A stretch of DNA of 64,000 nt from an uncultured Candidatus Saccharibacteria bacterium (lineage in GTDB: Bacteria > Patescibacteriota > Minisyncoccia > UBA9983): NCBI GenBank assembly GCA_964438405.1, contig CAYTKF010000001.1, positions 18,860 through 82,859 on the forward strand. Direction: 5' to 3'. Made by a program: the position numbers and the translations under genes. Position 1 is the first letter of the stretch. Each line of letters starts with the position of its first letter. The notes under the pieces were generated by a model. It was not told the DNA's origin and made no database searches. It worked only from the letters and a program-made list of their open reading frames with translations. Below, piece by piece: positions 1-59,489 of the stretch.

Positions 1-154
1 TCAGACGGTAATCCTGCTGGGTGATGTAAGAATATCCAGCCGGAATATGAGCCACCTCGTCAAAGGTGGCTGAATCATTGCGTACAGAAAAGAACATCAG
101 CAAAAACATGAAGGCAAGAATTAACAGGGCAAAAATTTTCGTAATTTTATTCAC
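1..154 (-). CDS. N-terminal fragment of a membrane glycosyltransferase, ArnT/PMT-like; the gene continues beyond the window start
   Basis: Reverse-strand translation from GTG at 154: VNKITKIFALLILAFMFLLMFFSVRNDSATFDEVAHIPAGYSYITQQDYRL. It has a hydrophobic N-terminus and a DE-x-x-H motif like the neighbouring GT39-family gene. Confidence 0.35.
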   Translation of the reverse strand, partial: MNKITKIFALLILAFMFLLMFFSVRNDSATFDEVAHIPAGYSYITQQDYRL

Positions 155-1754
155 GGTATCTTTGTTGGATTAATACGTTTTGGTCGGTATAGGTGAAAAG
201 GCCGGGGATTGCTTCTGATAATTTTTTTCTCAGCTGTGGATCGTTTTTCATCATAAAAATTTGTATGGAACGTTCGCTGTTCGCCTCTTTTATAAAATTA
301 TCAATATCTTTCGGCAGGATATAATAAATATCTTTTTCGTCCTGTTTTTGTTTGAGATAGGTATCTGACAAAAACATTATGGGCAATGTTTGCATGGGTA
401 GAATTTGTGAGTCGCCGTCGCTGTTGGCAATGACATATTTTTTAATGCCGATTGGCGCGCGGTTTAAATAATTTCCCAGATCAGCCATGTCTTTATTAAA
501 CGACGATGCCACTTCCGGCCTAGCGGCCCAGTCCCAAAAATATTGCTTGTAGGTGTTTATGCAAAACACGATTAAAAAAGCAAAAAGCAGAACATTGAGC
601 TCAAATTTTATTCTAGAAAGCTGACGAATTTTTTCAGGATATTTTTCTTTCTGTGTTTTGAGCCATGCACTAATTTTTTCAATCAGCCAGACAGAACCTA
701 GTGCTGCAAAAATCATTGCTACGGGCGCGACAACAATACTGCGCAAAGCATGAGGCAGGCCTTCGTCGGAAATAACAACTGGCAGAAGCATTATTACTAA
801 CCAAGTAACTAGTAACCAATAACTGGCAACAGGTTCTTCTTTTTTTCTTATTTTTTTGACGCTGATTATTATGCCTATCAGAAATAAAATTGCCATTGGC
901 CACCAGAGTTCCGGATTGCCAGCGATATTATGGCGCCAGTTAAAATCTCCGACAACTAAAAACATGCCAATAGTTATGATAATATTTTTTGCCAGTTCAA
1001 GAATGGGTGATGCTGCGGAAAAAATAGAAATTTGCGATGTTCTGCCCAAGAAATCCTGCGGATGTGCAAAATAATAATTTGCAAGGGGATAGACTGCCAA
1101 ACAAACCCCTATTACAAAAAATACAAGAGCAAGAATTTTTTTATTTTTAAGTAATGGCCAGAGAGGAAAAATCAGCAGCAACGGAGCCATTCTATAAGAG
1201 ATATATGAATTAAAACCCAGGCTAAAAACAAAACCGGAAAAAAGTCCTAAAAGCCAGTTTGGCTTTCGCCGCAAAACAAAAACCAGCCACAAACCCCAGC
1301 ATAAAAAGAAAGGCGCCATTATCGCCCTGAATCCAATGCGGGAAAAATTTATATGCCAAAAACTGGTGGCAAGAAAAAGAGAGGCCAAAAGCGCTACAGA
1401 TTCTTTATTAAATAACTCTTTGGTTAATAGATAAAGGCCCCATACTGTTAAACTGCCAAAGATTGCACTTACTAATCTCAAAACCCAGGCTTCGTTGCCA
1501 AGATATTTTACTGCTATTGCCTGAATATCTATAAATAATCCTTCCCGGCCGTTATTGTCCGGGAAAAATGCCTTGATGTTTTTCCACAATCCGCCGGGCG
1601 CCTCAATCACCTCAAGGGTATTGGCGCCGTTCATGGCCTCGTCTGAATAAAGGCCCGGAGGAGCGGTTTTTAAGTCATAAAAACGCAAAAAGATGGCAAC
1701 TGCCATTATCAAAACAATAAAAATAAGATTGTACTTCTTTATTGCCTCTTCCAT
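147..1754 (-). CDS. Polytopic membrane glycosyltransferase, ArnT/PMT (GT39/GT83-like) family
   Basis: 535 aa with many TM segments. N-terminal YSDEAMNGANTLE motif is typical of the ArnT/dolichyl-phosphate-mannose mannosyltransferase family. Confidence 0.6.
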   Translation of the reverse strand: MEEAIKKYNLIFIVLIMAVAIFLRFYDLKTAPPGLYSDEAMNGANTLEVIEAPGGLWKNIKAFFPDNNGREGLFIDIQAIAVKYLGNEAWVLRLVSAIFGSLTVWGLYLLTKELFNKESVALLASLFLATSFWHINFSRIGFRAIMAPFFLCWGLWLVFVLRRKPNWLLGLFSGFVFSLGFNSYISYRMAPLLLIFPLWPLLKNKKILALVFFVIGVCLAVYPLANYYFAHPQDFLGRTSQISIFSAASPILELAKNIIITIGMFLVVGDFNWRHNIAGNPELWWPMAILFLIGIIISVKKIRKKEEPVASYWLLVTWLVIMLLPVVISDEGLPHALRSIVVAPVAMIFAALGSVWLIEKISAWLKTQKEKYPEKIRQLSRIKFELNVLLFAFLIVFCINTYKQYFWDWAARPEVASSFNKDMADLGNYLNRAPIGIKKYVIANSDGDSQILPMQTLPIMFLSDTYLKQKQDEKDIYYILPKDIDNFIKEANSERSIQIFMMKNDPQLRKKLSEAIPGLFTYTDQNVLIQQRYRE

Positions 1755-1786
1755 TGATTTTTATTTTAACATATAATTAATATGTT

Positions 1787-2395
1787 ATGAACAACTTCAA
1801 AAAAGATATCTTGTTAACAGTCATAATAGGAGAAATTGCTTCATGGCTGATTGTTTTTATTTCTCAAAATCTTTTTTTTGCGCCCTATTTAAAATATCTG
1901 CCCATAATATTTCCTCTGGCGTGTGTGTTGGGGCTTATTGTCGCTTACTTCTTGGGTAAGATTGCGCCGGTTGTTTATCAGCTGGCGAAATTTGTTTTGG
2001 TCGGCGGTTTGAATTTTTTAATAGACATATCTGTTTTGAGTTTTTTTGTTTTTACCACGGGCGTGGTATCGGGCTTGATGCAGTCAGGTTTTAAGGGGAT
2101 TTCTTTTTTGGTCGCTGTCATAAACAGTTATTTTTGGAATAAACACTGGACGTTTAAAAAAACGAACAATAAAAAATCATCCAAGGAATTTCTGCAATTT
2201 TTTGTGGTGAGTATAATTGGATTGACAATAAATATTATTGTTGATTACTTTTTTGTAAATAACATTCCGCCATTTAAGGGGGTCGACCCAACAACATGGA
2301 CTCAGCTGGGCGCGGTTATCTCTGCCGCGACCGCACTTACCTGGAATTTTATAGGATATAAATTCATAGTTTTTGATTCAAAAGATGGTTCATAA
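1787..2395 (+). CDS. GtrA-family membrane protein (polysaccharide/glycan translocation-associated)
   Basis: 202 aa with 4 TM helices. Motif LVGGLNFLIDISVLSFFVF resembles GtrA-like proteins. It sits adjacent and divergent to the glycosyltransferases. Confidence 0.5.
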   Translation: MNNFKKDILLTVIIGEIASWLIVFISQNLFFAPYLKYLPIIFPLACVLGLIVAYFLGKIAPVVYQLAKFVLVGGLNFLIDISVLSFFVFTTGVVSGLMQSGFKGISFLVAVINSYFWNKHWTFKKTNNKKSSKEFLQFFVVSIIGLTINIIVDYFFVNNIPPFKGVDPTTWTQLGAVISAATALTWNFIGYKFIVFDSKDGS

Positions 2396-3548
2396 AAAAG
2401 GGAAAATTATAGCGGTTATGGAAATATCCAGTTCCTCAATTGGCGGTATTTTGTTTGAACAAAACAAGAAAGACAAACCAAAAATTATTTCCACAATCAG
2501 AGTACCGGTGAATTTTCTTTTTGATGTCAGCTTTGAGGCCTTTTGGCGCTGCACCTGTGCCAGTTTTAAAAGTGCAATATTAATGCTTTTAAAAGATTAT
2601 CCAAGCGGACCGGACGAGTGCCTTTGCATTTTTCTTTTCCCTTGGTTTACACCGCAGAGCCGTATCATAAATTTTGAGAGGGAGGAGCCCATCAGGGTTG
2701 ATAGAAAACTTTTTGACGGTATTATAAAAAGCGAAGAGGAAATTTTTAAAACGCACTGGAGATCTTCTCCAGAATCAAACGGACAGCCGGAATTTATAGA
2801 GCATGAAATTTTGAAAGTGGAGCTTAACGGATATTATACTAAGGACCCCATTGGCAAAAAGACAAAAACAATAAAGATTTATTTTTATATGAGTCTGGGA
2901 AGTCAGAAGATAATTAAAGAAATTAAATCTTATATTCTTGATGGATTCGGCGGGATACCCCTGATTTTTAGAACATTTCCATACGTCTCCTTCTCTTTTT
3001 TAAGAGAAAATATGAATACCCAAGAAGGTTTTGTTGTTGTTGATATGAGGGGAGAAATGACAGATATTTCTCTTTTTAGAAAAGACAATATAGAAGAAAT
3101 AGTATCCTTTCCCAAGGGTAGAAATTTTTTCCTTAGAAAAATTGCCTCCAAATTCAACACCTTCCCACAGGAGGCATCATCTCTATTTGAGACCTATTTA
3201 AAAAAACACGCGGAAGATAGCAACGCCCAAAAAATTTCTTTTATAATAGAAGAGTCCCAAAGGGAATGGCGCGAATCTTTTAAATCCGCGCTGGAAAAAA
3301 TTTCCGGCTCCAAACCATTACCCCAGAATATCTTTTTTATAGGAGATGAGGCAATAGGAAATATGTTTATTAAATGCGCTGAGGGAGATGATTTCGCAAA
3401 ATTCACTATTTTTGGACAACCGTTTAATGTCAGTAAAATCCTTTTTGAGGGTTTAAATCAAAGCGTCAATTTTAATATGAAAAGGCCGGCTGAAAAAGGA
3501 GATGTATTTCTTTTAATGGAATCTATTTTTGCAAATAAAAATTTATAA
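2373..3548 (+). CDS. Hypothetical protein, possibly an actin-like ATPase fold (FtsA/PilM-like N-terminus)
   Basis: N-terminus IIAVMEISSSSIGGILFE resembles the first phosphate-binding motif of FtsA/PilM-type proteins. No other recognisable motifs. Confidence 0.3.
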   Translation: MIQKMVHKKGKIIAVMEISSSSIGGILFEQNKKDKPKIISTIRVPVNFLFDVSFEAFWRCTCASFKSAILMLLKDYPSGPDECLCIFLFPWFTPQSRIINFEREEPIRVDRKLFDGIIKSEEEIFKTHWRSSPESNGQPEFIEHEILKVELNGYYTKDPIGKKTKTIKIYFYMSLGSQKIIKEIKSYILDGFGGIPLIFRTFPYVSFSFLRENMNTQEGFVVVDMRGEMTDISLFRKDNIEEIVSFPKGRNFFLRKIASKFNTFPQEASSLFETYLKKHAEDSNAQKISFIIEESQREWRESFKSALEKISGSKPLPQNIFFIGDEAIGNMFIKCAEGDDFAKFTIFGQPFNVSKILFEGLNQSVNFNMKRPAEKGDVFLLMESIFANKNL

Positions 3549-4725
3549 TATTATGGCAAAAAGAATTATTGAAGACGTAATAAGAAAAAAGATAAAACGC
3601 GTGCCAGCACCAGAGGCACCGCAAAAACCACCGCAGGAGCCCAAAGCCCCCGGCAAAAAATCATCCAAGAAAATTTATTTTTTTGTTTTTTTGGTGCTGG
3701 CGGTTATTTTGGGAGCGGGGTTTGTTTTGATAAAATTTTCTTCTGCCAATATAAAAATAACGCCGAGGCAGCAGGTGATAAATATCGATGCCGTTTTTGA
3801 TAATTTGAGCTTTGAAATAATCCAGATGGCCAAAAAAAATTCTCTTTCTTTTAACGCCACCGGCATTTCAAAGGGCGGACAAAGTGCTCGGGGCACAATT
3901 GTCCTTTATAATACCTATAGTTCCAAGGGGCAGTATCTTTTGATTGACACACGCCTTTCAACACCTGATGGGAAAATATATAAAACAGAAAAGGCAGTCA
4001 CTATTCCTGGTAATGGCTCAGTGGAAGTTGGAGTTTATGCGGATAAACCAGGGCCGGATTGTAATATTGGGCTGACAGATTTTTCCATAGTCGGCTTTAA
4101 GGGTACGGCAAAATACGACAAAATTTACGGACGTTCCAAAACATTTATGACCGGAGGAGCGCTGGGGGATACTGTTGTTGCCACAGATGCAGATATAAAC
4201 AACGCCAAAAATTCTCTTGAGAGCCAGCTCACTGATTATTTTTTTGAACAAATGAACAAGCAAAAACCAACTGAATATTTGCTTTATAAAAACGCGCTGG
4301 CTACGGATTTTGTGGAAGAAGTGGGTAAAAATTTTTCTTTTATTGCCAGCGCAACCAGCACCGGGTTCTTGATTAAAAAAGACGGGCTTTCCGGCGCATT
4401 GGTTAAAAAATATCTGTCTCAGAACGGAGAAGACAATAGTAGTGTTTATGTATCAAATCTTGAAGACTTAAATTTTAATCTTGTTTCCAAAAATAACGAC
4501 AACACAAAAATGACTTTTGAAATAAAGGGCGATGCTAATTTTGTCTGGAAAACAGACGAAGAAAAACTGACCAATGATTTGATGTTAGTAAATAACGGAG
4601 ACTATGCGTCGGTCTTCCAAAATTATCCCAATATAGAAAAGGCGGAAATAATCTTTTCTCCCTCCTGGTGGCGCTATCTGCCGAGCGACAAATCAAGAAT
4701 CCATTTTGAAACAGTACTACAGTAA
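3529..4725 (+). CDS. Hypothetical membrane-anchored protein with a Pro/Lys-rich linker and a single N-terminal TM
   Basis: 398 aa. PAPEAPQKPPQEPKAPGKK is followed by the TM segment IYFFVFLVLAVILGAGFVLI and a large extracytoplasmic domain. Confidence 0.4.
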   Translation: MQIKIYNIMAKRIIEDVIRKKIKRVPAPEAPQKPPQEPKAPGKKSSKKIYFFVFLVLAVILGAGFVLIKFSSANIKITPRQQVINIDAVFDNLSFEIIQMAKKNSLSFNATGISKGGQSARGTIVLYNTYSSKGQYLLIDTRLSTPDGKIYKTEKAVTIPGNGSVEVGVYADKPGPDCNIGLTDFSIVGFKGTAKYDKIYGRSKTFMTGGALGDTVVATDADINNAKNSLESQLTDYFFEQMNKQKPTEYLLYKNALATDFVEEVGKNFSFIASATSTGFLIKKDGLSGALVKKYLSQNGEDNSSVYVSNLEDLNFNLVSKNNDNTKMTFEIKGDANFVWKTDEEKLTNDLMLVNNGDYASVFQNYPNIEKAEIIFSPSWWRYLPSDKSRIHFETVLQ

Positions 4726-6612
4726 ACTTTCTGGGTCTATATCTATTTTCCAGTTTGGCGTTAAAGATAACAATTTTTCGTAAAGTTTGGGCTGTTTGTC
4801 CGGCCAGGTTTCTGGGTCTAATTTTAAGAGCAAATGCCAGGAATAAATATTTTTTACTTTGGGAATAAATGCCGGATAAATTATTGGTTTCCATTCTTCT
4901 AAATCTCTTTTTAATTTTTCAATTTCTATTTTTAATTTTGAATTGTCCCTGCCTTCTTTGGTAATTTTAATTAAAAGTTTGAACGGCGGGTATTCAAAAT
5001 TTTTGCGGTTTTCAATTTCGTCTTTATAAAAACCGGAAATATTGCCCTTAACCACGTTGTCAAAAATTGAAGTTGATTCAGCCAATCTGCTCTGGATTAA
5101 AAAAGTCTTTTTTGCCAAATATCTGAGTTTTAATAAAATATGGAAAATTTTTTCATTGATTCTAAAGTCAGGCAGGCCGAAGAGAGAGTCAAGGGAAACT
5201 ACACCAACACGTTCTATGGGAGAATCTTTTAGGGCGTTAAAATAAGAAAAAATTATTTCCGTGCCTATTAAAATTGAGCCGGGCGAGTTCAAAAATTTTT
5301 CCGCAGTTTCCTTTCCCTGTTTTATATTTTTGATAATATCGCTGTCCATTCTAAAAATTTTAAATTTGGGAAAAAGTTTTTCTATTTCCTCAAAAACTTT
5401 TTCCGCGCCCATGCCCAGTGTTATCAATCTCCAGCTCTTGCAATAAGGGCATCTCTCCGGAGATTTTGTGATAGAGAGACATTTGTGGCAGACCCAGTCT
5501 CCGGGCGGTTTATGCAGAACAAGGGGCGTGGCGCATTTATCGCACAATATCACAAATTGGCAGTCCTGGCAGATAGTGGTCGGGCTATGCCCTTTGCGGT
5601 TGATAAACAAAAGAACCCTTTCGTTGTTTTTGTAGGCCTCTTCTATAATTTCTTTAAGCTGATGACTGATGACTAAAAGCTCTTTGGGCCTTTGCCAGTT
5701 CAAACTGCTCTGTTCCTTTTTCATGTCAACGATAATCTGTTCTGCCTCGGACAGGGGGCGGGAAAATGAGGGATTTTTTTCTTTGCCGAAAAAGGTTTCC
5801 GTCCGTATCAGAGAATCGCCGATGATAAAACGTTTTTTTGTTTTTCTGCATATTATTTCAATAATTTTTCTGACGTCGAGATGCGGCCTCTGTTCCAGCT
5901 TGTAAAGAGAAGAATTTTCTTCTTCCATAATTATGGTGCCGATATCTTTTCTCGGCAAAGAGAGAAAAGTTTTTGTGGCTGTTATCAAAACAGGATGTTC
6001 CTCCATTAAAATTTTACTCCACGTCTCCCTGATTTTTTTGGCCGGAATTTTACCGTGCAGAATAAAAGTATAATTTTCTATACCCTTTTGTATTTCCTGA
6101 GAAATTTTTTCCAGATCGGAAATCGCCGGCATACACAAAAAAACAGAATGCCCTCTGGCAAATTCTTCTCTGATTATGCTTTTATAATATTGAAAGCGGT
6201 CTTTGGGAGGATATTGCGCCAGAACAATTTCTTGTCTTGGAAGAGCAGTTTTGATATTCTCGTTTTTTAAAGGGGAAGGATTGTCAAAAATAATTGAGGG
6301 GACAAAATCTTTTAGCACTTCTCCCGCTGACGACAGAAAATATTTTGCGCCTTCTTCGCAGGCGCCTATAAAATCTTTATCAAAGAAACATGAAGCCTTT
6401 ACGCTTTTTATGGATTTTAGGACAAAACCAGACTTTTTGAGAGTGGACTTCAAACTTTTAAGCTCATCCACAGAAGAAACAATTGCCGGAATTATTCTTT
6501 TTTTAAGCGGTATGGTTACAAGAGCGCCCGGCTCCACGTCCTTGCTGGTAAAATAAGAAAGTTTTTCTTTCGGCACGCCCTTGGCAATGGGAATAACATT
6601 TGCGATTTTCAT
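4717..6612 (-). CDS. priA: Primosomal protein N' (PriA)-like; zinc-binding cysteine cluster intact but helicase Walker A/B motifs degenerate
   Basis: 631 aa. C-x2-C...C-x2-C...C-x2-C...C-x2-C cluster (CQDCQ..CDKC..CHKC..CPYC) is typical of PriA. The GxTGSGKT position reads QYPPKDRF and the DEEH position reads MEEEN. Confidence 0.6.
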   Translation of the reverse strand: MKIANVIPIAKGVPKEKLSYFTSKDVEPGALVTIPLKKRIIPAIVSSVDELKSLKSTLKKSGFVLKSIKSVKASCFFDKDFIGACEEGAKYFLSSAGEVLKDFVPSIIFDNPSPLKNENIKTALPRQEIVLAQYPPKDRFQYYKSIIREEFARGHSVFLCMPAISDLEKISQEIQKGIENYTFILHGKIPAKKIRETWSKILMEEHPVLITATKTFLSLPRKDIGTIIMEEENSSLYKLEQRPHLDVRKIIEIICRKTKKRFIIGDSLIRTETFFGKEKNPSFSRPLSEAEQIIVDMKKEQSSLNWQRPKELLVISHQLKEIIEEAYKNNERVLLFINRKGHSPTTICQDCQFVILCDKCATPLVLHKPPGDWVCHKCLSITKSPERCPYCKSWRLITLGMGAEKVFEEIEKLFPKFKIFRMDSDIIKNIKQGKETAEKFLNSPGSILIGTEIIFSYFNALKDSPIERVGVVSLDSLFGLPDFRINEKIFHILLKLRYLAKKTFLIQSRLAESTSIFDNVVKGNISGFYKDEIENRKNFEYPPFKLLIKITKEGRDNSKLKIEIEKLKRDLEEWKPIIYPAFIPKVKNIYSWHLLLKLDPETWPDKQPKLYEKLLSLTPNWKIDIDPESLL

Positions 6613-7466
6613 TTTAAATTTATTTGAATCAAGTTTTGATCGTCTAAAATATACAAAAAATTATCTTTGGAATAGACGGTAAAAATGGGGTCTTTGCCTT
6701 TATAAACCGGCTGAATGTTTCTTCCGCCGCGACCGTCAATTTCTATGGCATAGATGCTGTTTTGCATGGCAAAAATTATGAGGTCTTTTCTGTTTGGATA
6801 AAAATCAATATTTTTAATAAGGGTTTTTAATTCGTAAATTAAAAGCTGGGAAGAACAATTTTTATCGTCGCAAAAAAAATAGGGCAGGGAATTGGAATCA
6901 CTAAGCCATTCCGCCCAGATCTTGTTTGTTTGGGGATCCCACCAGATTTTTTCCTTGCTATTACTGGAAAGCCGGCTGTAATAAAGGTCTTTTTGTGCGT
7001 CAGTGGCTTTTTTATCAAGTGGTTTTTTAAGATTATTCAAGATATTTAAAATTTCTTCGTATTGCGAACTTTCAAGCGGCGAGAAATTTTCTCTAAGTAT
7101 TATTTTGCCATTGGGATTGCTTGGCACCATAAACGCCCTTGCCTCTGTTACTAATTTTTCTTTAACCGCAAGTTTTTTTGACCAAGGCCAATAATCATCT
7201 TTTGTTATGAGAACAGAATATTTGCCGGGCATCAGACTTTGCAAAAAGAGGTCGTTTTGCAGAAAGCCGGTTTCTTTTTCTTCTTTGTTGTTTACGAAAA
7301 TTTTTGAGCCGGAAACAGACGAAGCAATATAAAGTCCGCCGGTCCCGTAAAGCTTCAGTCCGCTGTCCCAGCGATAGCCCATGGTATATAAAAGAACAAC
7401 AGGCGAGGCAACCACAAAAAATAAGAAACACAAAATTAAAACTAATCTTCTGCTTTTGGCAGTCAT
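6609..7466 (-). CDS. Hypothetical signal-anchored protein
   Basis: 285 aa. N-terminal TM segment LVLILCFLFFVVASPVVLL. No recognisable catalytic motif. Confidence 0.4.
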   Translation of the reverse strand: MTAKSRRLVLILCFLFFVVASPVVLLYTMGYRWDSGLKLYGTGGLYIASSVSGSKIFVNNKEEKETGFLQNDLFLQSLMPGKYSVLITKDDYWPWSKKLAVKEKLVTEARAFMVPSNPNGKIILRENFSPLESSQYEEILNILNNLKKPLDKKATDAQKDLYYSRLSSNSKEKIWWDPQTNKIWAEWLSDSNSLPYFFCDDKNCSSQLLIYELKTLIKNIDFYPNRKDLIIFAMQNSIYAIEIDGRGGRNIQPVYKGKDPIFTVYSKDNFLYILDDQNLIQINLK

Positions 7467-7524
7467 TATTCTAATTTTTGCAGAAATTGACGTTAAAGTA
7501 AAGAAGATTTAATATTATACTGTT

Positions 7525-8538
7525 ATGGTTTTGTTTGTGAAAAAGCTCGGGATTGATTTGGGGACAGCTTCCACTCTTGTTTTTGTGCCAGGCCAGGGCA
7601 TTGTTTTGAATGAACCGTCTGTTGTGGCTGTTTCTGTGCCGGATAATAAGGTTCTGGCAGTGGGCAACGAAGCAAAGGCAATGATAGGAAAAACGCCTGA
7701 CACCATTATTGCTTATCGTCCCATGAAAGACGGAGTGATTGCGGATTATCGTGTGACAGAAGCAATGCTTAAATATTTTATTTCCAAGGCATTGGGCAAA
7801 TGGAATTTTTTCAAACCCGAAGTAATGGTTTCTGTGCCAGCCGGCGTTACGTCTACTCAAAGGCGGGCTGTTGTTGAAGCAGGAGTAAGGGCCGGCGCAA
7901 AAGCAGCTTATGTTGTTAAGGAGCCGGTTTTGGCAGCCATTGGCGCTGGCATTCCTATTAATGAGCCGTCAGGCCACATGATTGTTGATATTGGCGGAGG
8001 AACTATTGACGTGGCAGTAATTTCTCTGGGCGGAATTGTGGCTTCAAATTCTGTTAAATGTGCTGGAGATAAAATTGACCAGGCAATTGCTGATTACATC
8101 AAGAAAAATTTTAATTTGGCAATCGGCGACAGAACAGCCGAAGACATAAAAATTAATATCGGTTCGGCAGTGCCTGTTGATGAAGAAATGACATATAAAA
8201 TTAAGGGCAGAGATTTTCTGACCGGTCTGCCCAGAAGCGCGGAAATCACAACCAACGAAATAGTTAAGGCCATTGACGCGGAATTGCGGGAAATGATGCG
8301 CGCCATTAAAAATGTTCTACAGGATACGCCGCCCGAACTTTCTTCTGATATCATAGACAATGGTATCACCATGACCGGCGGAACTTCGCTTTTGAGAAAT
8401 ATAGATGAGCTTGTTTTCAGAAGCACCGGAGTAAAAGCAAAAGTTGCCGAAGACGCGCTTTTCTGCGTTGCCAAAGGCACAGGAGTTGCCCTAGACCACT
8501 TAAACGCCTACAAAAAAAGCATAATGGCGAAAAGATAA
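7525..8538 (+). CDS. mreB: Rod shape-determining protein MreB (copy 1)
   Basis: GIDLGTASTLVFV, DIGGGTIDVAV and GGTSLL actin-fold motifs; 337 aa. Confidence 0.9.
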   Translation: MVLFVKKLGIDLGTASTLVFVPGQGIVLNEPSVVAVSVPDNKVLAVGNEAKAMIGKTPDTIIAYRPMKDGVIADYRVTEAMLKYFISKALGKWNFFKPEVMVSVPAGVTSTQRRAVVEAGVRAGAKAAYVVKEPVLAAIGAGIPINEPSGHMIVDIGGGTIDVAVISLGGIVASNSVKCAGDKIDQAIADYIKKNFNLAIGDRTAEDIKINIGSAVPVDEEMTYKIKGRDFLTGLPRSAEITTNEIVKAIDAELREMMRAIKNVLQDTPPELSSDIIDNGITMTGGTSLLRNIDELVFRSTGVKAKVAEDALFCVAKGTGVALDHLNAYKKSIMAKR

Positions 8539-9218
8539 TGAAATCTATTTTGGATTTTCATATTGGAAGCGAGAATTTTCATCACGGATATTTGCTGATG
8601 GGGAATCTTGAAGAATCTAAAAAAATAGCTTTTGAAACAGCCAGAGTTATCTTGGACAAAAAAGATAAGCTTGAAACCCATCCGGATTTTTTTTACGAAA
8701 AATACGATTTATTCGGCATTGACGACAGCCATGAAATTATAGGCAAAGCGTCCAAACGTCCGTTGGTAGGCGATAAAAAAGTTTTTATTTTGGAAACCAA
8801 TGGCTTCAGCATCGAGTCGGCCAATGCTCTGCTCAAAACTTTTGAAGAGCCGTATGAAGGCACGCATTTTTTTATTTTATTGCCGTCGCTGGACGATGTT
8901 CTGCCAACTCTGCGTTCGCGCTTAGTTGTCATAAATACTGGCAGGGGAAATATAGAACCGGATGAAGAAAAAGAAGAAACTTTTGAGAAATTTTTAAAAA
9001 GCAATGCTGAAAAACGGCTTGAAATAATAAAAGAATTTTCTGACGACAGATTTACGGCAATGGAATTTTTAAATGGTTTAGAAATAATAATAAACAAAAA
9101 TAAAGAAAAATTATCTGCGCTTAATGAGATCGGCAGGTGCAGGAGTTTTCTTCTTAGCCGCGGCGCGTCAGCCAAAATGGTTTTGGAGCATATTGCGTTG
9201 GCTCTACCAAAAATATAA
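8538..9218 (+). CDS. holB: DNA polymerase III delta-prime (clamp loader) subunit-like, short form
   Basis: HGYLLMG...KKVFILETNGFSIESANALLKTFEEPYEGTHFFIL...LPTLRSR matches the HolB/DnaX AAA+ lid/sensor region. Start overlaps the mreB stop. Confidence 0.55.
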   Translation: MKSILDFHIGSENFHHGYLLMGNLEESKKIAFETARVILDKKDKLETHPDFFYEKYDLFGIDDSHEIIGKASKRPLVGDKKVFILETNGFSIESANALLKTFEEPYEGTHFFILLPSLDDVLPTLRSRLVVINTGRGNIEPDEEKEETFEKFLKSNAEKRLEIIKEFSDDRFTAMEFLNGLEIIINKNKEKLSALNEIGRCRSFLLSRGASAKMVLEHIALALPKI

Positions 9219-9227
9219 AATATATTT

Positions 9228-9779
9228 ATGAAGTACGATTTTTCCAAAACAAAAAATAAAGTGGAGGAGACAAAAGCGTTTTTTAAGCGCGAAATAGCCA
9301 GTTTGCGAACCGGCCGGGCAAGTCCTGTTCTTGTTGAAGATATTCTGGTTGATTCCTATGGCTCAAAATTGCCCATTAAGCATGTGGCCTCAATCAGCGT
9401 TGAAGACGCAAAAACCTTACGCATCACTCCCTGGGACATGTCAGTTATAAAAAATATAGAGAGTGCAATCAGTGGGTCAAATCTGGGCATTCAACCCATT
9501 GCAGACAAGCAGTCCATACGAGTTTCCGTTCCGCAATTGTCAGAAGAGAGGCGCAAGGCATTGCTTAAAATTCTTTCGGAAAAACACGAAGAGGCGAAAA
9601 TTTCTCTGCGCCAGGAGCGGGACGAAACATGGAAAGATATTCAGGACAGGGAAAAAAGAAAAGAAATGTCAGAAGACGAAAAATTCCGCTACAAAGATGA
9701 ACTGCAGAACCTGATAGACAGGGCAAACGAAGAACTGGAAAATCTGTCTGACAGCAAAAAATCAGAAATTAGTAATTAG
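9228..9779 (+). CDS. frr: Ribosome recycling factor
   Basis: LRTGRASPVLVEDILVDSYG...LRITPWD matches the RRF family; 183 aa. Confidence 0.9.
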   Translation: MKYDFSKTKNKVEETKAFFKREIASLRTGRASPVLVEDILVDSYGSKLPIKHVASISVEDAKTLRITPWDMSVIKNIESAISGSNLGIQPIADKQSIRVSVPQLSEERRKALLKILSEKHEEAKISLRQERDETWKDIQDREKRKEMSEDEKFRYKDELQNLIDRANEELENLSDSKKSEISN

Positions 9780-9790
9780 AAATTAAAAAT

Positions 9791-10846
9791 TTGTCTGTAA
9801 TTATTTTTATAATCGTTCTTGCGATTTTGATTTTGTCCCATGAGTTTGGGCATTTTATTACTGCAAAAAAGGCTGGGATAAGAGTGGACGAATTTGCCAT
9901 TGGCTTTCCTCCGCGATTATTCAGCTGGAAAAAAGGGGAAACAACTTACGCCGTAAATCTCTTGCCTCTTGGCGGTTATGTAAAAATTCACGGCGAAGAT
10001 GATGCCACAAACCCAAACGACCCGCGAAGTTTCGCGTCAAAATCAGCGCTGACAAGGACAATGGTTTTGGCTTCAGGTGTTTTGTTTAATCTTGTTCTGG
10101 CATGGGTTTTGATTTCTTTGGGCTATATTATCGGTTTGCCCACCAGCACCTCTGCTGTTCCAGCGGGCGCAAATATCAGTAATGTAAGAATAATTGTCAT
10201 AGAAGTGGCAAAAGATTCTCCTGCAGAAATGGTTGGGATTAAGGCAGGGGATGAGATAATCGGTTTTTCCCGCATTCAAGATTTCCAAAATTTTATCAGC
10301 GTCAACAAAAATAAGGAAGTTTCCATAAATCTAAACCACAACGGAGAAGGTATTTCTGTTAAACTTGTGCCAAGAAAAAATCCGCCCCAGGGCCAGGGCG
10401 CAATCGGCATTGCCATGGACGAGGCAGGCACATTAAAACTTCCGTGGTATAAGGCTTTGCCTTACGCCGCAAAATTTACTTATCAATTAACAATTGCCAT
10501 TGCCGTCGCAACTTATTCTTTTATTGTTGATGCCTTTCGAGGTTTGGCTGGTTTTGACCAGGTGATGGGGCCGGTTGGCATTGCAGGCGCAACAGGAGCT
10601 GCGGCAAAAATGGGATTTTCGTATCTTCTCGGTTTTATTTCTATGCTTTCCATAAATCTGGCTATTATCAATATTCTTCCGTTCCCGGCATTGGACGGCG
10701 GAAGAATTTTATTTCTGCTCATAGAAAAAATTAAGGGCTCGCCAGTGAGCGAAAGATTCAGCAGTATTGCCCACGCCGTAGGCCTGGCATTACTTCTGGT
10801 TCTAATGCTGGCAATAACCTACCGTGACATTTTACGGTTGATCTAA
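9791..10846 (+). CDS. rseP: RIP metalloprotease RseP (site-2 protease, PDZ-containing), TTG start
   Basis: HEFGHFITAKKAGIRVDEFAIGFPP (HExxH), PDZ-like middle region, and C-terminal LDGG motif. Confidence 0.85.
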   Translation: MSVIIFIIVLAILILSHEFGHFITAKKAGIRVDEFAIGFPPRLFSWKKGETTYAVNLLPLGGYVKIHGEDDATNPNDPRSFASKSALTRTMVLASGVLFNLVLAWVLISLGYIIGLPTSTSAVPAGANISNVRIIVIEVAKDSPAEMVGIKAGDEIIGFSRIQDFQNFISVNKNKEVSINLNHNGEGISVKLVPRKNPPQGQGAIGIAMDEAGTLKLPWYKALPYAAKFTYQLTIAIAVATYSFIVDAFRGLAGFDQVMGPVGIAGATGAAAKMGFSYLLGFISMLSINLAIINILPFPALDGGRILFLLIEKIKGSPVSERFSSIAHAVGLALLLVLMLAITYRDILRLI

Positions 10847-10873: not shown

Positions 10874-10917
10874 CTATTGTGAACAAATGGAACGATCGTG
10901 AAAAATGGTAACAATAG
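10874..10917. promoter_or_regulatory. 44-bp quasi-palindrome centred exactly on CGATCG (downstream-flank copy for PaaX-like gene 1)
   Basis: ctattgtgaacaaatggaaCGATCGtgaaaaatggtaacaatag. Terminal ctattgt/acaatag are exact inverted repeats, with 19-nt arms on each side of CGATCG. Confidence 0.5.
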
Positions 10918-10930
10918 ATTAGTAATAGAT

Positions 10931-11593
10931 TTATTGTTTTATTATTGCGCTCTTGAGTAAATTCTTAAAATAATATAAAACTTTCTCATCAGTCATTTCT
11001 TTTACAAGAAATATTTTCACAAGGGGCTTTATATTAAAAAAATCTTTTAAGAATTCTATTTCTTCTATACAAGGGAAAGGATGAACCCAAACGCTTTTCT
11101 GACACTGATAAAAATTAAGATCTTCCAATTTATTTCTAAGCGAGTCTCTAATTTTTCTTTGGTTTTCCGGTATGTCAAAAATAACAAGCCGCCAATTTCC
11201 ATCCCAATTTTTTGGGACACTAATTTTTAATTCATCAAGGATAAACTTTTTAATTTTTTTCTTTCCATTTTCAGTAACAGTATAAATAAGACAATCTTCT
11301 TCTTCTTTTAAAAATTCCAAATTGTGTTTTTGTTTTAATTTATTAAAGGTATACCATATTTTTCTATATTCTTCGTAACTTTCTCTTTTTTGCCTTTGTC
11401 TTATTTTTTCTATTATTCCTAAAACGTTAGGGAAGGCGACGCCAAAGGTTAAAATTCCTCCGGTAGCTATTAATGCAAGGGTGGCATTAAGAGTAGTTTT
11501 GGCTTTAGAGTTTTCTTTTATTATCCTTAAAAGATACTTTTTAAGGTTTGGTTCTAGGGTTGTTTCAAATTTTATCGGTTTGTGTTTAGGCAT
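10931..11593 (-). CDS. PaaX-family transcriptional regulator-like protein (paralog 1)
   Basis: NWDGNWRLVIFDIPENQRKIRDSLRNKLEDLNFYQCQKSVWVHP parallels the WDGKW...LW.GFG...P core of PaaX. Paralogous to 48177..48734. Confidence 0.5.
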   Translation of the reverse strand: MPKHKPIKFETTLEPNLKKYLLRIIKENSKAKTTLNATLALIATGGILTFGVAFPNVLGIIEKIRQRQKRESYEEYRKIWYTFNKLKQKHNLEFLKEEEDCLIYTVTENGKKKIKKFILDELKISVPKNWDGNWRLVIFDIPENQRKIRDSLRNKLEDLNFYQCQKSVWVHPFPCIEEIEFLKDFFNIKPLVKIFLVKEMTDEKVLYYFKNLLKSAIIKQ

Positions 11594-11626: not shown

Positions 11627-11670
11627 GCATTGTGACCAAATGGAGCGGTCGTGAAAAATGGTAACAATAG
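11627..11670. promoter_or_regulatory. Second copy of the 44-bp element (41/44 identical), upstream flank of PaaX-like gene 1
   Basis: gcattgtgaccaaatggagcggtcgtgaaaaatggtaacaatag, in the same orientation as 10874..10917. Confidence 0.5.
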
Positions 11671-11726
11671 AAAGTGGATGAGAATAGAGTAGTTACGGAA
11701 AATAAGTTGTGATATAATTTATTTAC

Positions 11727-14320: not shown

Positions 14321-14384
14321 AAATCCTTGCTTCGTTTAAATTTTTGAAGTAGAGTTAATAATTATAAGTTAAACCATTAAACTT
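14321..14384 (+). promoter_or_regulatory. Conserved 64-nt leader/promoter region, copy A (upstream of S8 protease 1)
   Basis: aaatccttgcttcgtttaaatttttgaagtagagttaataattataagttaaaccattaaactt. About 85% identical to 16262..16324. Possible -35 ttgctt and -10 tagagt/tagtat. Confidence 0.5.
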
Positions 14385-16261: not shown

Positions 16262-16324
16262 AAATCCTTGCTTCGTTTAAGTTTTTGAAGTAGTATTAAG
16301 AATTATAAGTTAAACTATTAAATT
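16262..16324 (+). promoter_or_regulatory. Conserved leader/promoter region, copy B (upstream of S8 protease 2)
   Basis: aaatccttgcttcgtttaagtttttgaagtagtattaagaattataagttaaactattaaatt. Confidence 0.5.
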
Positions 16325-48176: not shown

Positions 48177-48734
48177 ATGGCTATAAAAATAAAAAGCGAA
48201 ACGAAACAAAAAATTCTACTTTTGCTTTTGGCGGGTTTGGCGTTAGGAATGTCAAAAACACCCAAAAGATATTTTAAGGTACTGAAAACTATTCCCAAAG
48301 AATGGAAAGATATAAAAAGAAGACAATTATTGGATGCTGTCCGCGAATTTTATAACAATAGAATCGTTGATTATAAAGAACTAAATGATGGCACAGTAGA
48401 AGTTGTCTTAACAAAAGAGGGAAGAAAGAGAGCGTTAATTTTTAAAATTGACGAAATGGAAATTAAAAAACCAGATAAGTGGGATGGCAAATGGAGAATA
48501 GTTATTTTTGATATTCCGGAAAAGAAGAGGGCAGCCAGATTTGCATTAAGAAACAAACTTAAAGATCTTGGTTTTAAAGAATTACAGAAAAGCGTTTTTG
48601 TTCATCCTTACGAATGCGAGGATGAAATTGATTTTATTGTAGAAGTATTTGAAATTAGACCCTATGTAAAATTCTTAAGAACAGATTCTTTTACAAATGA
48701 TGAACAATTTAAATTAAAATTTAAGATTTATTAA
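48177..48734 (+). CDS. PaaX-family transcriptional regulator-like protein (paralog 2)
   Basis: KWDGKWRIVIFDIPEKKRAARFALRNKLKDLGFKELQKSVFVHPYE. N-terminal wHTH-like segment KQKILLLLLAGLALG. Confidence 0.5.
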   Translation: MAIKIKSETKQKILLLLLAGLALGMSKTPKRYFKVLKTIPKEWKDIKRRQLLDAVREFYNNRIVDYKELNDGTVEVVLTKEGRKRALIFKIDEMEIKKPDKWDGKWRIVIFDIPEKKRAARFALRNKLKDLGFKELQKSVFVHPYECEDEIDFIVEVFEIRPYVKFLRTDSFTNDEQFKLKFKIY

Positions 48735-53690: not shown

Positions 53691-54062
53691 ATGAATCAAC
53701 CAAGGAACCAAAACCCGGTGGTCCTTGTTGTTTTAGGGATCACTTTCATGATTCTTTTCGTGGCTGTCGGCTTGTATGGCAACTCCGGAGACAACGAATT
53801 TGTGGCCGGGACTCTTGCCCTGGCCTGTATCGCGGAGTTTTACACCGGCCTGTTGTACGCGATCGGTGCCACATTTCGCAGTGCTGCTCTGACTGGAATC
53901 GCTTTTGCTGGAGTATTACTGGTGGGTGGGGTAATGTTCGCCACCACCACTTTCTTCCTGACCAAAATCGTGGCAGTTTTATTTCCAATTGCCACCCACT
54001 TTTTCTTCATCCGCCGGCAACTCGGCCACGACAACGATTCGCCGGGAGCTGAAACAAAGTAA
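53691..54062 (+). CDS. Small polytopic membrane protein encoded in a GC-rich (about 50%) island
   Basis: 123 aa, 3-4 TM helices (VVLVVLGITFMILFVAVGLYG, LALACIAEFYTGLLYAIG, AFAGVLLVGGVMFATTTFFL). Composition differs sharply from the flanks. Confidence 0.5.
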   Translation: MNQPRNQNPVVLVVLGITFMILFVAVGLYGNSGDNEFVAGTLALACIAEFYTGLLYAIGATFRSAALTGIAFAGVLLVGGVMFATTTFFLTKIVAVLFPIATHFFFIRRQLGHDNDSPGAETK

Positions 54063-54192: not shown

Positions 54193-54525
54193 ATGATTAT
54201 CAAAGAGAAAATTTCGAAGGAAGAATTTGATAAGCTTTTTAATGCTTTTTACGGCACGGTTTTAAAGATGACGGTTGATATAGAAAAAAATATTTTGTCA
54301 GCCGGATGCGAATTTCATATTGAATGTTCCGAAGAACTTGTGGAAAAAGAAAGTTCTGAACAAAAAAATCTCTGGGGCGCAAATCTCTATAGAAAAGATA
54401 TGTCAATTGATTATAATTCTCTTATTAACATCAAGCCGATGGAAAATAACAGGTCAATGGAAATTCAGGATTCAGCAATAAAACAAAGGGTTGAAAAAAT
54501 AATTAAAGATTTATTATGCAATTAG
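54193..54525 (+). CDS. Hypothetical protein
   Basis: 110 aa; overlaps the next ORF by 10 nt; no known motif. Confidence 0.3.
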   Translation: MIIKEKISKEEFDKLFNAFYGTVLKMTVDIEKNILSAGCEFHIECSEELVEKESSEQKNLWGANLYRKDMSIDYNSLINIKPMENNRSMEIQDSAIKQRVEKIIKDLLCN

Positions 54526-54785
54526 AACGCTGGAAAAAATTTTCAAAAGGACAGCAGATGGGAGCAATTGCCGCTGAGATTGCCCGCGCCAAAACTTGGC
54601 AGAATCAAGACCAAGAAAAATTTTTATCTGCCATCGAAAGGGGACTGGAACTTATTGATTCCTCTATAGATGATGATAAATGGCGCGGCTGGCGTTCAAT
54701 GCTTTTTGGTTTAAGAAATGAACTGGCTAATTTTTATTTAAATAATTCTTATAAAGATATTAATATTTTGTACACAGCCATTTGA
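54516..54785 (+). CDS. Hypothetical protein
   Basis: 89 aa, helical, Trp-rich (WRGWRSMLFGLRNELANFYL). Confidence 0.3.
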   Translation: MQLERWKKFSKGQQMGAIAAEIARAKTWQNQDQEKFLSAIERGLELIDSSIDDDKWRGWRSMLFGLRNELANFYLNNSYKDINILYTAI

Positions 54786-54828
54786 CAACTTTTATCTCTT
54801 TTGCTATCATCTAAATACAACAAAATAA

Positions 54829-55048: not shown

Positions 55049-55165
55049 ATGAAGGTTAAGGCGTCAATTAAAAAAATTTGCAGGGATTGCAAGATGGTCA
55101 AACGCAGGGGCTGTATTTATGTCATCTGCAAAAAAAATCCCAAGCATAAACAAAGACAGGGATAA
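55049..55165 (+). CDS. rpmJ: 50S ribosomal protein L36
   Basis: [38 protein letters not shown]; C-x2-C...C-x4-H zinc ribbon. Not in the ORF track because under 60 aa. Confidence 0.8.
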
Positions 55166-55373
55166 TAATGGCTTGGCCCACGATTTGGAGCCAAAGGCGA
55201 ACAAATTGTGGTTGCCAAACATTACCCCGCCCTCTCTTCTGTTATTTTTATCAAAGAGGACGGAATAAAAATTATGAAATATTTTGAAAAATTAAAAGTA
55301 AAAAATAAAAATGAGAGGGGCGGGGTGCTCAATTTTATAATTGCTCACTTCGCTCGCAAATAAAATTGGCATG
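55165..55373 (+). repeat. 209-bp intergenic element, copy 1 (rpmJ stop to rpsM start), containing a 101-nt stem-loop and a 29-codon sORF
   Basis: Identical to 55748..55956 by visual alignment over all 209 nt. Arms ccccgccctctc (55225) and gagaggggcgggg (55313). sORF 55274..55363 MKYFEKLKVKNKNERGGVLNFIIAHFARK with RBS aaagagga. Confidence 0.8.
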
Positions 55374-55751
55374 CGTATCGCTGGAACAAACATACCGGAT
55401 AATAAAAGACTGGAGATTGCATTAACCTATGTTTTTGGCATTGGCAGAACGCGGGCAAAAGAAATTTTAAAAGGCGCGCAAATTTCCATAGACAAAAAAG
55501 CAAAAGATTTATCTGAAAAAGAATCTAATTCTATCAGGGAATTTGTGGAAAAATATAAAATAGAAGAAGAATTGCGCAGAGAAATTTCCTCTAATATCAA
55601 AAGGTTAAAAGAAATTAAGGCCTACCGCGGTATGCGCCATTCAAGAAAACTGCCTGTGCGCGGACAAAGAACCAAAACTAATTCCCGCACAAACAGAGGC
55701 AATGTCAGAGTAACCATGGGCAGTGGAAGAAGGAAATTGGAAAAGACATAA
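55371..55751 (+). CDS. rpsM: 30S ribosomal protein S13
   Basis: MRIAGTNIPDNKRLEIALTYVFGIGRTRAKEIL...C-terminal RGQRTKTNSRTNRG. Start is the ATG at the end of the repeat; the tracked N-extension MLTSLANKIG is repeat-encoded. Confidence 0.85.
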   Translation: MRIAGTNIPDNKRLEIALTYVFGIGRTRAKEILKGAQISIDKKAKDLSEKESNSIREFVEKYKIEEELRREISSNIKRLKEIKAYRGMRHSRKLPVRGQRTKTNSRTNRGNVRVTMGSGRRKLEKT

Positions 55752-55956
55752 TGGCTTGGCCCACGATTTGGAGCCAAAGGCGAACAAATTGTGGTTGCCA
55801 AACATTACCCCGCCCTCTCTTCTGTTATTTTTATCAAAGAGGACGGAATAAAAATTATGAAATATTTTGAAAAATTAAAAGTAAAAAATAAAAATGAGAG
55901 GGGCGGGGTGCTCAATTTTATAATTGCTCACTTCGCTCGCAAATAAAATTGGCATG
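55748..55956 (+). repeat. 209-bp intergenic element, copy 2 (rpsM stop to rpsK start)
   Basis: Perfect copy of 55165..55373; sORF copy at 55857..55946. Confidence 0.8.
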
Positions 55957-56388
55957 GGTAAAAAACGAATTATAACAAAAGAGGGAGCGGTCGTTGACCA
56001 GGAGCTTAAGGCCCGGTCGCTCAGCAAGATGCCGAAGAAAAAAATCACCAGCGCTGTTTTAAATGTGCAGTCAACTTTTAATAATACTCTCATCAGCCTC
56101 TCAGACAAAAAAGGCAATACCATAATGTGGTCATCAAGCGGAGCACTGGGATTCAAGGGCGCGAAAAAAGGCACCCCTTTTGCCGCATCAAAAGTTGCTG
56201 AACTTCTGGCTGACAAAGCAAAGACAATGGGAATTAAAGATATTGATGTTGTTATTAAGGGCGTTGGGGCTGGCAGAGAGTCGGCTGTCAGAACCTTCAG
56301 TAGCCGGGGTTTTGAAATAAATCTTATCCGCGACGAAACCCCGATTCCGCATAACGGCCCCAAACCGCCCAAACCACGCAGGGTATAA
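55954..56388 (+). CDS. rpsK: 30S ribosomal protein S11
   Basis: VLNVQSTFNNTLISLSDKKGNTIMWSSSGALGFKGAKKGTPFAA...C-terminal PHNGPKPPKPRRV. Confidence 0.85.
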   Translation: MGKKRIITKEGAVVDQELKARSLSKMPKKKITSAVLNVQSTFNNTLISLSDKKGNTIMWSSSGALGFKGAKKGTPFAASKVAELLADKAKTMGIKDIDVVIKGVGAGRESAVRTFSSRGFEINLIRDETPIPHNGPKPPKPRRV

Positions 56389-59137: not shown

Positions 59138-59416
59138 ATGACAAATTTGCCGGGTTTTTTACAAACCCCGTTTATGGCGGGACTTTCAACGGGATTTTTT
59201 CTTGTCATTCTTGCCTGGTCTCTTTTTTGGAAGGGATGGGCTTTGTGGAGGTCTGCCAGAACAGGACATAAATGGTGGTTTGTGGCTTTGTTGGTAATTA
59301 ATACTGTCGGTATCTTAGAAATTCTTTATCTTTTTGTTTTCAGCAAAAAGGGAGGTGTTTCAATAATGAAGACAGAAGAAAGCAAAACCCCAGAGCCTCC
59401 AATGAGTACGATGTAA
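59138..59416 (+). CDS. Small membrane protein, hypothetical
   Basis: 92 aa; 2 TM, W-rich (LFWKGWALWRSARTGHKWWFVALLVI). Confidence 0.35.
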   Translation: MTNLPGFLQTPFMAGLSTGFFLVILAWSLFWKGWALWRSARTGHKWWFVALLVINTVGILEILYLFVFSKKGGVSIMKTEESKTPEPPMSTM

Positions 59417-59489
59417 AAAAACGTCCCGCCGCTCGCGAGCGACGGGATTTTCGTTTATTTAAAATAAATATTGTGTAAATTACAGCAAT

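Follow-up and report, generated by a model that had tools for sequence, protein, structure and literature searches.

A structured repeat on both flanks of rpsM in a Saccharibacteria genome: a putative new family of small non-autonomous insertion elements

Known small repeats and the rpsM flanks

Small, structured and non-autonomous intergenic repeats form a broad class (PMC2229807). We found no description in the literature of small interspersed repeats in the candidate phyla radiation (CPR)/Patescibacteria, and in these reduced genomes they are essentially undescribed. Here we report on a 64-kb stretch of Candidatus Saccharibacteria DNA (64,000 nt, hereafter the window) in which a 209-nt direct repeat, 100% identical between its copies at 55165-55373 and 55748-55956 of the forward strand, entirely fills the rpmJ-rpsM and rpsM-rpsK spacers of the alpha ribosomal-protein operon. 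On balance, we consider it probable that the repeat represents two copies of a new, non-coding, non-autonomous structured insertion element lodged between TAA and ATG. Our comparisons show that the element was gained in this lineage, is structured and is found elsewhere in another genome.

The closest behavioural precedent is provided by the MIRUs, which the element resembles, although we do not claim membership. According to PMC12548453, which cites Supply et al. 1997, MIRUs are reported to insert at start codons and to carry an internal open reading frame (ORF) coupled to the downstream gene, whose expression thereby suffers little. The likeness lies in a small repeat within an operon at a start codon, with an internal ORF stopping near the downstream start; MIRUs are mycobacterial, 40-100 bp long and often tandem, and the overlap between their ORF and the start codon is -4 nt. 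The window element differs in its length of ~202 nt, its three hairpins, the 7-nt gap between ORF stop and start codon, an ORF not kept in the homologue that we describe below (metagenome contig L022) and its lack of sequence similarity to MIRUs. Both window copies are placed at a start codon in the MIRU manner, and the L022 copy lies 33 nt from the next ORF. A conserved overlapping ORF is not seen: the stop falls upstream of the ATG, and the ORF start is missing in L022.

Other families share further traits. ERIC/IRU and YPAL elements are, like the element studied here, 100-200 nt long, intergenic, transcribed together with their neighbours, folded into stable stem-loops and crossed by fortuitous frames (PMC2229807), and ERIC elements co-transcribed in Yersinia change mRNA stability (PMC2229807). 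ERIC elements have short terminal inverted repeats (TIRs), a TA target-site duplication, one long hairpin and many copies per genome (PMC2229807), whereas the window element has three separate hairpins and lacks TIRs. Correia/NEMIS, RUP and classical miniature inverted-repeat transposable elements (MITEs) are likewise small, non-autonomous and non-coding, vary in presence between close relatives and give a structured transcript (PMC2229807). TIRs and target-site duplications matching a parent insertion sequence define these families (PMC2229807); the window element has no TIRs and no clear target-site duplication. At ~202 nt the element falls within the MITE size range (about 100-400 bp), and it has neither a conserved ORF nor a transposase of its own. 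The best alignment between its two ends scores 14 versus 11 +/- 2 for shuffled sequences, a value reached by 12% of shuffles, and it is not terminal; the L022 copy has no TIRs either. In both window copies the ATG can be read as a 3-bp duplication, where L022 has AAG and ATA.

The IS200/IS605-derived PATEs have left and right subterminal hairpins that are alike and are recognised by one TnpA, and a TnpA/TnpB gene is present in the genome. They resemble the window element in lacking TIRs and an evident duplication, in having hairpins near both ends and in their similar short flanks (here TAA on the left). In the window element, however, the outer hairpins H1 and H3 have no sequence similarity to each other, and no TnpA/TnpB gene is present among the 57 window genes. 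The element thus qualifies neither as a classical MITE nor as an IS200/IS605-type derivative, and the most fitting description is a new family within the class of small, structured intergenic repeats that are non-autonomous. Group I intron, attC, diversity-generating retroelement, retron and terminator-promoter cassette were also considered and dropped, as none gave a diagnostic motif or Rfam match.

The two spacers had been described beforehand as identical over 209 bp, and this is exactly what we find. Identity ends at +210, where codon 2 opens with C in rpsM (after copy 1) and with G in rpsK (after copy 2); directly after this mismatch both sites share GTA. The repeat is by far the longest in the window, its copies are 583 bp apart, and neither blastn nor nhmmer detects a third copy in the 64 kb. 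On the left, copy 1 has an additional TAA (55166-55168) in frame directly behind the TAA that ends rpmJ, and in copy 2 the rpsM stop TAA (55749-55751) lies within the repeat. On the right, both copies end with the G of the downstream ATG. The core of the element spans ~202 nt (55169-55370 in copy 1) with ends TGGCTTGG...AAAATTGGC.

As a single strand, the element is predicted to form three hairpins that fill the spacer without linkers: H1 (59 nt, -26.7 kcal/mol; 55166-55224, copy 2 at 55749-55807), H2 (101 nt, -30.3 kcal/mol; 55225-55325, copy 2 at 55808-55908) and H3 (46 nt, -11.7 kcal/mol; 55326-55371, copy 2 at 55909-55954), all given for the plus strand. The 101-nt stem-loop pointed out in the preliminary description is thus the middle one of three; its arms, CCCCGCCCTCTC and GAGAGGGGCGGGG, enclose 76 nt, with a base of 13 G+C-rich pairs and an A+U-rich, weakly conserved interior. 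H3 ends on the A of the downstream ATG. The minimum free energy of the whole element is -69.3 kcal/mol (z = -5.8 against shuffles for the window copy; z = -3.9 for the L022 homologue). The minus strand folds nearly as well (z = -5.0), and folding energy therefore leaves the acting strand undecided.

RNAalifold applied to the window and L022 sequences gives the same three hairpins in both. All 53 consensus pairs are formed in each sequence, with 4 compensatory changes, 3 one-sided changes and no broken pair, so that every change in a stem keeps pairing. In L022, a G-C pair of H1 is replaced by U-A, a compensatory change, and a G-U pair by G-C; H3 has one compensatory change (G-C to A-U), and the pairing of the basal stem of H2 is kept. 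Differences between the two sequences fall in 11 of 106 paired columns versus 35 of 100 unpaired ones (Fisher p = 2e-5). The consensus structure was derived from the same two sequences that were used to test its conservation, and with two distinct sequences the shuffle control is weak; for these reasons we regard the predicted three-hairpin structure as well supported, not proven.

An element gained in one lineage

The sequence comes from a short-read metagenome-assembled genome, and the repeat exceeds typical k-mers, which would favour one real copy having been assembled as two. We gathered independent assemblies of the same organism by exact-protein look-ups and obtained loci from four other samples/runs. 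Contig L001 (ERZ27284381) begins within copy 1 and continues through rpsM, all of copy 2 and rpsK; L002 (ERZ27284374, k = 119), a unitig of 612 bp, joins element positions 92-209 to rpsM and this in turn to element positions 1-120, precisely the product expected from a de Bruijn graph when a real repeat exceeds k; and L033, L034 and L036 (ERZ27284377, ERZ27284381 and SRR8863431) run from infA through rpmJ into the start of the element, L033 terminating at window base 55373, the last base of the repeat. The rpmJ-to-element junction is found in these last three contigs, the element-to-rpsM and rpsM-to-element junctions in L001 and L002, and the element-to-rpsK junction in L001. All four distinct junctions recur in independent short-read assemblies, and the sole path that uses all of them is rpmJ-E-rpsM-E-rpsK, where E is the element. 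Contigs break inside or at the end of the repeat, as would be expected if a true repeat is longer than k. As far as short-read data go, the artefact raised in the preliminary description is very unlikely: independent assemblies contradict it, and with part of copy 1 and the full copy 2 standing on one contig (L001), a single copy counted twice deserves next to no credence.

S13 homologues place the window in the CPR, and we refer its genome to the Parcubacteria. The rpmJ-rpsM-rpsK locus was compared in its five closest relatives. The rpmJ-rpsM and rpsM-rpsK spacers measure 42 and 32 nt in the closest, L027 (S13 94% identical, rpsM DNA 84.5%), 15 and 19 nt in L028 (S13 81%), 8 and 4 nt in L037 (S13 81%), 3 and 74 nt in L039 (S13 79%) and 5 and 5 nt in L031 (S13 79%). 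In none of the five does either spacer show similarity to the element. The relatives' spacers being free of it, the element is a gain in the lineage of the window, and this comparison of orthologous spacers shows it to be lineage-specific. It also speaks against a conserved leader on the very condition named in the preliminary description, as the homologous spacers contain neither the small ORF discussed below nor the stem. Replacement of rpsM by a xenologous gene was dismissed, identity to L027 (S13 94%, S11 88%) showing no anomaly. S13 homologues with N-terminal extensions were considered as markers of upstream elements and discarded, the extensions being out-of-frame rpmJ sequence.

Some of these spacers have features of their own. 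L027 carries about four tandem CGCGTAA-like heptamers in both rpsM-flanking spacers: at L027:329-372 they read CGCGTAC/CGCGTTA/CGCGTAA and so on, including a perfect 18-nt palindrome, and at L027:753-786 GCGTAAC/GAGTAAC/GCGTAAC and so on, which differs from the window insert and is of the same kind as the other L027 spacer. The 74-nt rpsM-rpsK spacer of L039 (L039:10382-10455, also in L040) holds a perfect 26-nt palindrome, ACGAATATACGAATTCGTATATTCGT. Judging from these sequences, the rpsM flanks seem to gather hairpin-forming inserts repeatedly, a pattern that hints at a recurrent landing site.

A homologue of the element was found outside the operon. Metagenome contigs were scanned with the H2 stem arms (12+13 nt), and of the 13 loci recovered, 12 are chance matches in G+C-rich DNA; only contig L022 (Ga0315282_10266307, 39% G+C) is real. 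It contains the whole element at 843-1046 with 81% identity. The ENA contig L041 carries the L022 sequence, from which it differs by one extra base at the start. Here the element lies 3′ of a type IV pilin gene. In L042, a syntenic relative of L022, only 39 nt separate the pilin gene from dnaX; the element is thus found in gene contexts that have nothing in common, and relatives lack it at the corresponding sites. All three copies have TAA at the left boundary and AT at the right boundary. Between window and L022, identity is 84% in H1, 81% and 100% in the 5′ and 3′ arms of the H2 base, 61% in the H2 interior and 85% in H3, and a block of 42 identical nt covers the H2 3′ arm and the start of H3. 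The conserved parts are therefore the stems and the 3′ end, and the H2 interior has diverged.

The surroundings of the L022 copy show three further details. Synteny with L042 breaks here; the sequence directly before the element (826-842), which the empty L042 site does not have, contains an extended -10 motif, TGCTATAAT, 5-9 nt from it; and the ORF that follows the element (1079-1156, MKKTEPKENLKKILKEQGEETRRYL...) is truncated by the contig end after 25 codons.

Searches for further copies gave little. Outside the window, ~4 kb of the genome on the upstream side and 1.7 kb on the downstream side contain no further copy. Genome contigs scanned with 11+11-nt stem arms gave 11 matches, all of them chance occurrences in G+C-rich genomes; viral contigs scanned with the conserved element blocks and a distant blastn against phages and plasmids gave no match. 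An nhmmer profile of both homologues, run against the window and 49 loci, recovered the known copies only, besides one marginal antisense match. At 53916-53973 (minus strand), within a 123-codon membrane-protein gene, this weak similarity to H1 and the H2 5′ arm reaches 76% over 34 nt with an nhmmer E of 0.055 and is probably due to chance. Looking for the element elsewhere, as had been proposed for the 209-mer, yielded the 81% homologue at L022 and no further copy in the window or the sequence around it.

Among the origins considered in the preliminary description, a mobile MITE-like insertion is the one that we favour, given that the relatives' spacers are free of the element and that an 81% copy stands in another gene context. 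We hypothesize that the element landed or was copied exactly between the TAA and the ATG of rpsM and rpsK, leaving the start codons intact, and that both copies would be co-transcribed with the operon from a promoter before infA. The A+U-rich last ~20 nt, which keep the start codons no less accessible than those of other genes in this Shine-Dalgarno-poor genome, may explain why the insertions are tolerated. The 100% identity would result either from a very recent copying event or from gene conversion, the two copies standing at a distance of 583 bp.

Several observations weigh against an insertion element. Only three copies or sites are known, in two genomes, and two of them are adjacent; no third copy exists in the 64 kb or in the ~4 kb beyond its start, so that dispersal within the genome is unsupported. 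There are no TIRs and no clear target-site duplication, and the 57 window genes include no transposase, integrase or reverse transcriptase. The relatives do not have 0-3-nt spacers at both sites, and two independent insertions that left no ancestral spacer bases would be odd unless TAA^ATG is targeted or one copy was templated by the other. The L022 homologue is conserved like an essential gene at such a distance, which could mean function and not selfish spread. Finally, covariation is weak with two distinct sequences, 43 of 500 shuffles reaching the observed value.

A purely local event would involve no mobility: gene conversion or template switching would have duplicated or homogenised a native spacer on the two sides of rpsM. 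In its favour, the two identical copies are neighbours (583 bp) and each reaches without a gap from a stop codon to a start codon, ATAATG-GTA is common to both sites, and L027 likewise has one kind of insert at both rpsM flanks. We nevertheless regard it as improbable. The flanking homology of 3-6 nt is too short for ordinary gene conversion, the relatives' operons are free of the element, and its presence at the pilin locus of another genome indicates that it has moved at least once.

Should the element prove to be dispersed and specific for its sites, it would offer a way into a mobilisation system in CPR. We may go one step further and conjecture a mobile RNA/DNA module, confined to CPR bacteria, that seeks out start codons: either a MIRU-like invader whose own ribosome-delivery ORF would let it reside in essential operons of an SD-less organism, or an ORF-less derivative of a larger element. 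In the latter variant a structured 5′ RNA would guide insertion, which the promoter, 200-nt RNA and ORF layout of L022 would allow. We hold both variants, taken together, to be doubtful.

The internal reading frame and possible regulatory roles

Each copy contains a 29-codon small ORF (sORF), MKYFEKLKVKNKNERGGVLNFIIAHFARK, at 55274-55363 (copy 2: 55857-55946; plus strand). Its position was correctly given before: its TAA lies 7 nt before the ATG of rpsM or rpsK, and codons 13-17 coincide with the 3′ arm of H2. It is the final part of a 64-codon open frame (55169-55363) that spans the whole spacer and, in each copy, continues the frame of the stop codon upstream. In L022, however, the sORF ATG reads ATA and the frame is interrupted. 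Over the six sORF codons that fall in H3, window and L022 differ by three non-conservative replacements (A>T, H>R and F>P), and the sole synonymous change, CGC>CGT, is the hairpin partner of the GCT>ACT change, which argues for constraint on pairing and not on the peptide.

Searches at the protein level were negative. An exhaustive phmmer search with the 64-codon frame against 1.84 billion protein representatives gave 0 matches, exact look-ups of 10 element-derived peptides in protein collections found none, a word-indexed protein search with a 591-aa concatenate of six-frame segments from both homologues gave none at E <= 1, and neither the sORF nor the element has a match in Pfam. We infer that the sORF is a by-product of the A-rich interior of the hairpin.

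The sORF had been credited with a GAGGA ribosome-binding site. This GAGGA is part of an inner stem of H2, and an SD-like (Shine-Dalgarno-like) 4-mer within 20 nt upstream occurs in only 3 of 57 window genes: the genome is essentially SD-less. As SD motifs are barely used, GAGGA is no evidence for a ribosome-binding site. It is true, as noted earlier, that rpsM and rpsK have no Shine-Dalgarno of their own, but for the same reason this does not set them apart. Occlusion of the start codons by H3 was expected, yet the accessibility analysis showed none: the start regions of rpsM and rpsK rank 45 and 50 of 59, above the genome median. Their starts are normally accessible, and therefore no ribosome relay is needed. 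The coupling of S13 and S11 translation to a leader peptide, as previously suggested, is thus not supported, given the loss of the sORF start and frame in L022, the lack of protein homologues and the accessible starts.

These observations also bear on whether the same insert has been exapted as a cis-acting element that now affects S13/S11 expression. Two routes can be envisaged: the internal ORF may bring terminating ribosomes 7 nt before each ATG in a MIRU-like relay, or H1 and H2 may act as processing or stabilising sites that fix the ratios between cistrons. The sORF AUG lies in the A+U-rich open part of H2 with the stop close to the ATG, and the spacer is one 64-codon frame, in frame with the upstream stop, in both copies. 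Precedents exist in the MIRUs (PMC12548453) and in the effect of ERIC on mRNA stability in Yersinia (PMC2229807). In addition, the ancestral spacers of 3-19 nt imply a coupling that a 200-nt insert would break, and hairpin-forming inserts occur in the same spacers of two relatives. On the other hand, L022 lacks the sORF start and has a broken frame, amino-acid changes are non-conservative where nucleotide changes keep the hairpin, no protein homologues are found and the rpsM and rpsK starts are not occluded. Moreover, the window copies are identical and therefore provide no independent evidence of selection. Altogether we see exaptation as unlikely, though it is a reading to be kept in mind ahead of the other alternatives.

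A more specific regulatory proposal was an autoregulatory leader bound by S4, S13 or S11, as in the E. coli alpha operon. The S4 leader of that operon (RF00140) is, like the element, a structured RNA directly upstream of rpsM, and a weak sub-threshold match to RF00140 (Alpha_RBS) does occur at 55361-55400. At 17.5 bits (E = 0.54), this match stays below the gathering score of 38; it extends over 40 of the 110 positions of the model and was not recovered in the element-only Rfam scan. Rfam 15 scans of both homologues returned only sub-threshold generic hairpin families (miRNA, snoRNA) that differ between the homologues. Unlike the E. coli leader, the element has no significant model match, is not in the operon of any of the five relatives, has a second copy before rpsK and occurs at a non-ribosomal locus too, where its homologue adjoins a pilin gene. 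An S4-type repressor structure, the proposal made in the preliminary description, is contradicted by these data, and we consider any autoregulatory leader of this kind extremely improbable.

Another possibility is a portable transcribed module: a gene for a small RNA, or a 5′ leader that brings its own promoter. It might be the non-coding part at one end of a larger element, and the window copies would be ORF-less derivatives of the latter. The extended -10 motif 5-9 nt upstream of the L022 copy and the ORF 33 nt after it are what such a module would predict; all three copies are oriented like the downstream gene, a TATAAT lies in the 42-nt invariant block ~30 nt before the ATG, and a U-rich stretch follows the G+C-rich base of H2. 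Promoter and terminator scans, however, are not above shuffles (7 versus 3.7 +/- 2.1 and 4 versus 2.1 +/- 1.4), the window copies have just (G/C)ATAAT at the left edge, a working terminator would do harm to an essential operon, the ORF downstream of the L022 copy breaks off after 25 codons, and there is no Rfam match, the HEARO and group I intron models included. We give this possibility little weight and retain the insertion element as our preferred reading.

Gene starts and other features of the window

The element has practical consequences. The NCBI call for S13 (136 aa, P0242) begins at TTG 55341 and that for S11 (154 aa, P0244) at TTG 55924, both within the element (window 55341-55370 and 55924-55953), and MLTSLANKIG is the N-terminus of both proteins. 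From the sequence comparison, this shared N-terminus is spurious and the true starts are ATG 55371 for rpsM (S13; 55371-55751, plus strand, Pfam PF00416) and ATG 55954 for rpsK (S11; 55954-56388, plus strand, Pfam PF00411): all relatives begin MRIAG in the former, and relatives begin MGKK in the latter. The element has thus led to wrong public start-codon calls for S13 and S11, and it also breaks short-read assemblies right at a phylogenetic marker locus. Its presence twice in the alpha ribosomal-protein operon, flush with two essential starts, shows that insertion is tolerated without SD-driven initiation.

The gene upstream of copy 1 is rpmJ (L36; 55049-55165, plus strand; Pfam PF00444, E = 7.7e-21). 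A candidate sigma-70-type promoter, TTGACA-17 nt-TG-TATCAT, lies 5′ of infA (54782-54810, plus strand) and agrees with 11 of 12 consensus positions, a consensus match only. Given this candidate, both copies of the element would be placed within an infA-rpmJ-rpsM-rpsK-rpsD-rpoA-rplQ transcription unit. Between a membrane-protein gene and infA, a DUF5674 gene and an overlapping 89-codon gene occupy 54193-54785; the syntenic relative L028 has no genes at this position. Further downstream, a G+C-rich palindrome 3′ of the DUF5652 gene (59414-59457) resembles an intrinsic terminator.

Other repeats exist in the window. A PaaX_M/Cas2-like gene on the minus strand (10934-11593), with a paralogue at 48177-48731, lies between direct repeats of 43 nt (10876-10918 and 11629-11671, 93% identical). 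Two neighbouring subtilase paralogues are preceded by the copies of a 61-nt repeat (14321-14381 and 16262-16322, 92% identical), which is probably a duplicated promoter or 5′ untranslated region. Lastly, assembly GCA_007376735.1 (VMGW01000013.1) is 100% identical to window positions 1-10163 save for a ~27-nt stretch present twice, a difference that maps to window ~5363-5390, in a PriA-like gene, versus L047:6734-6761.

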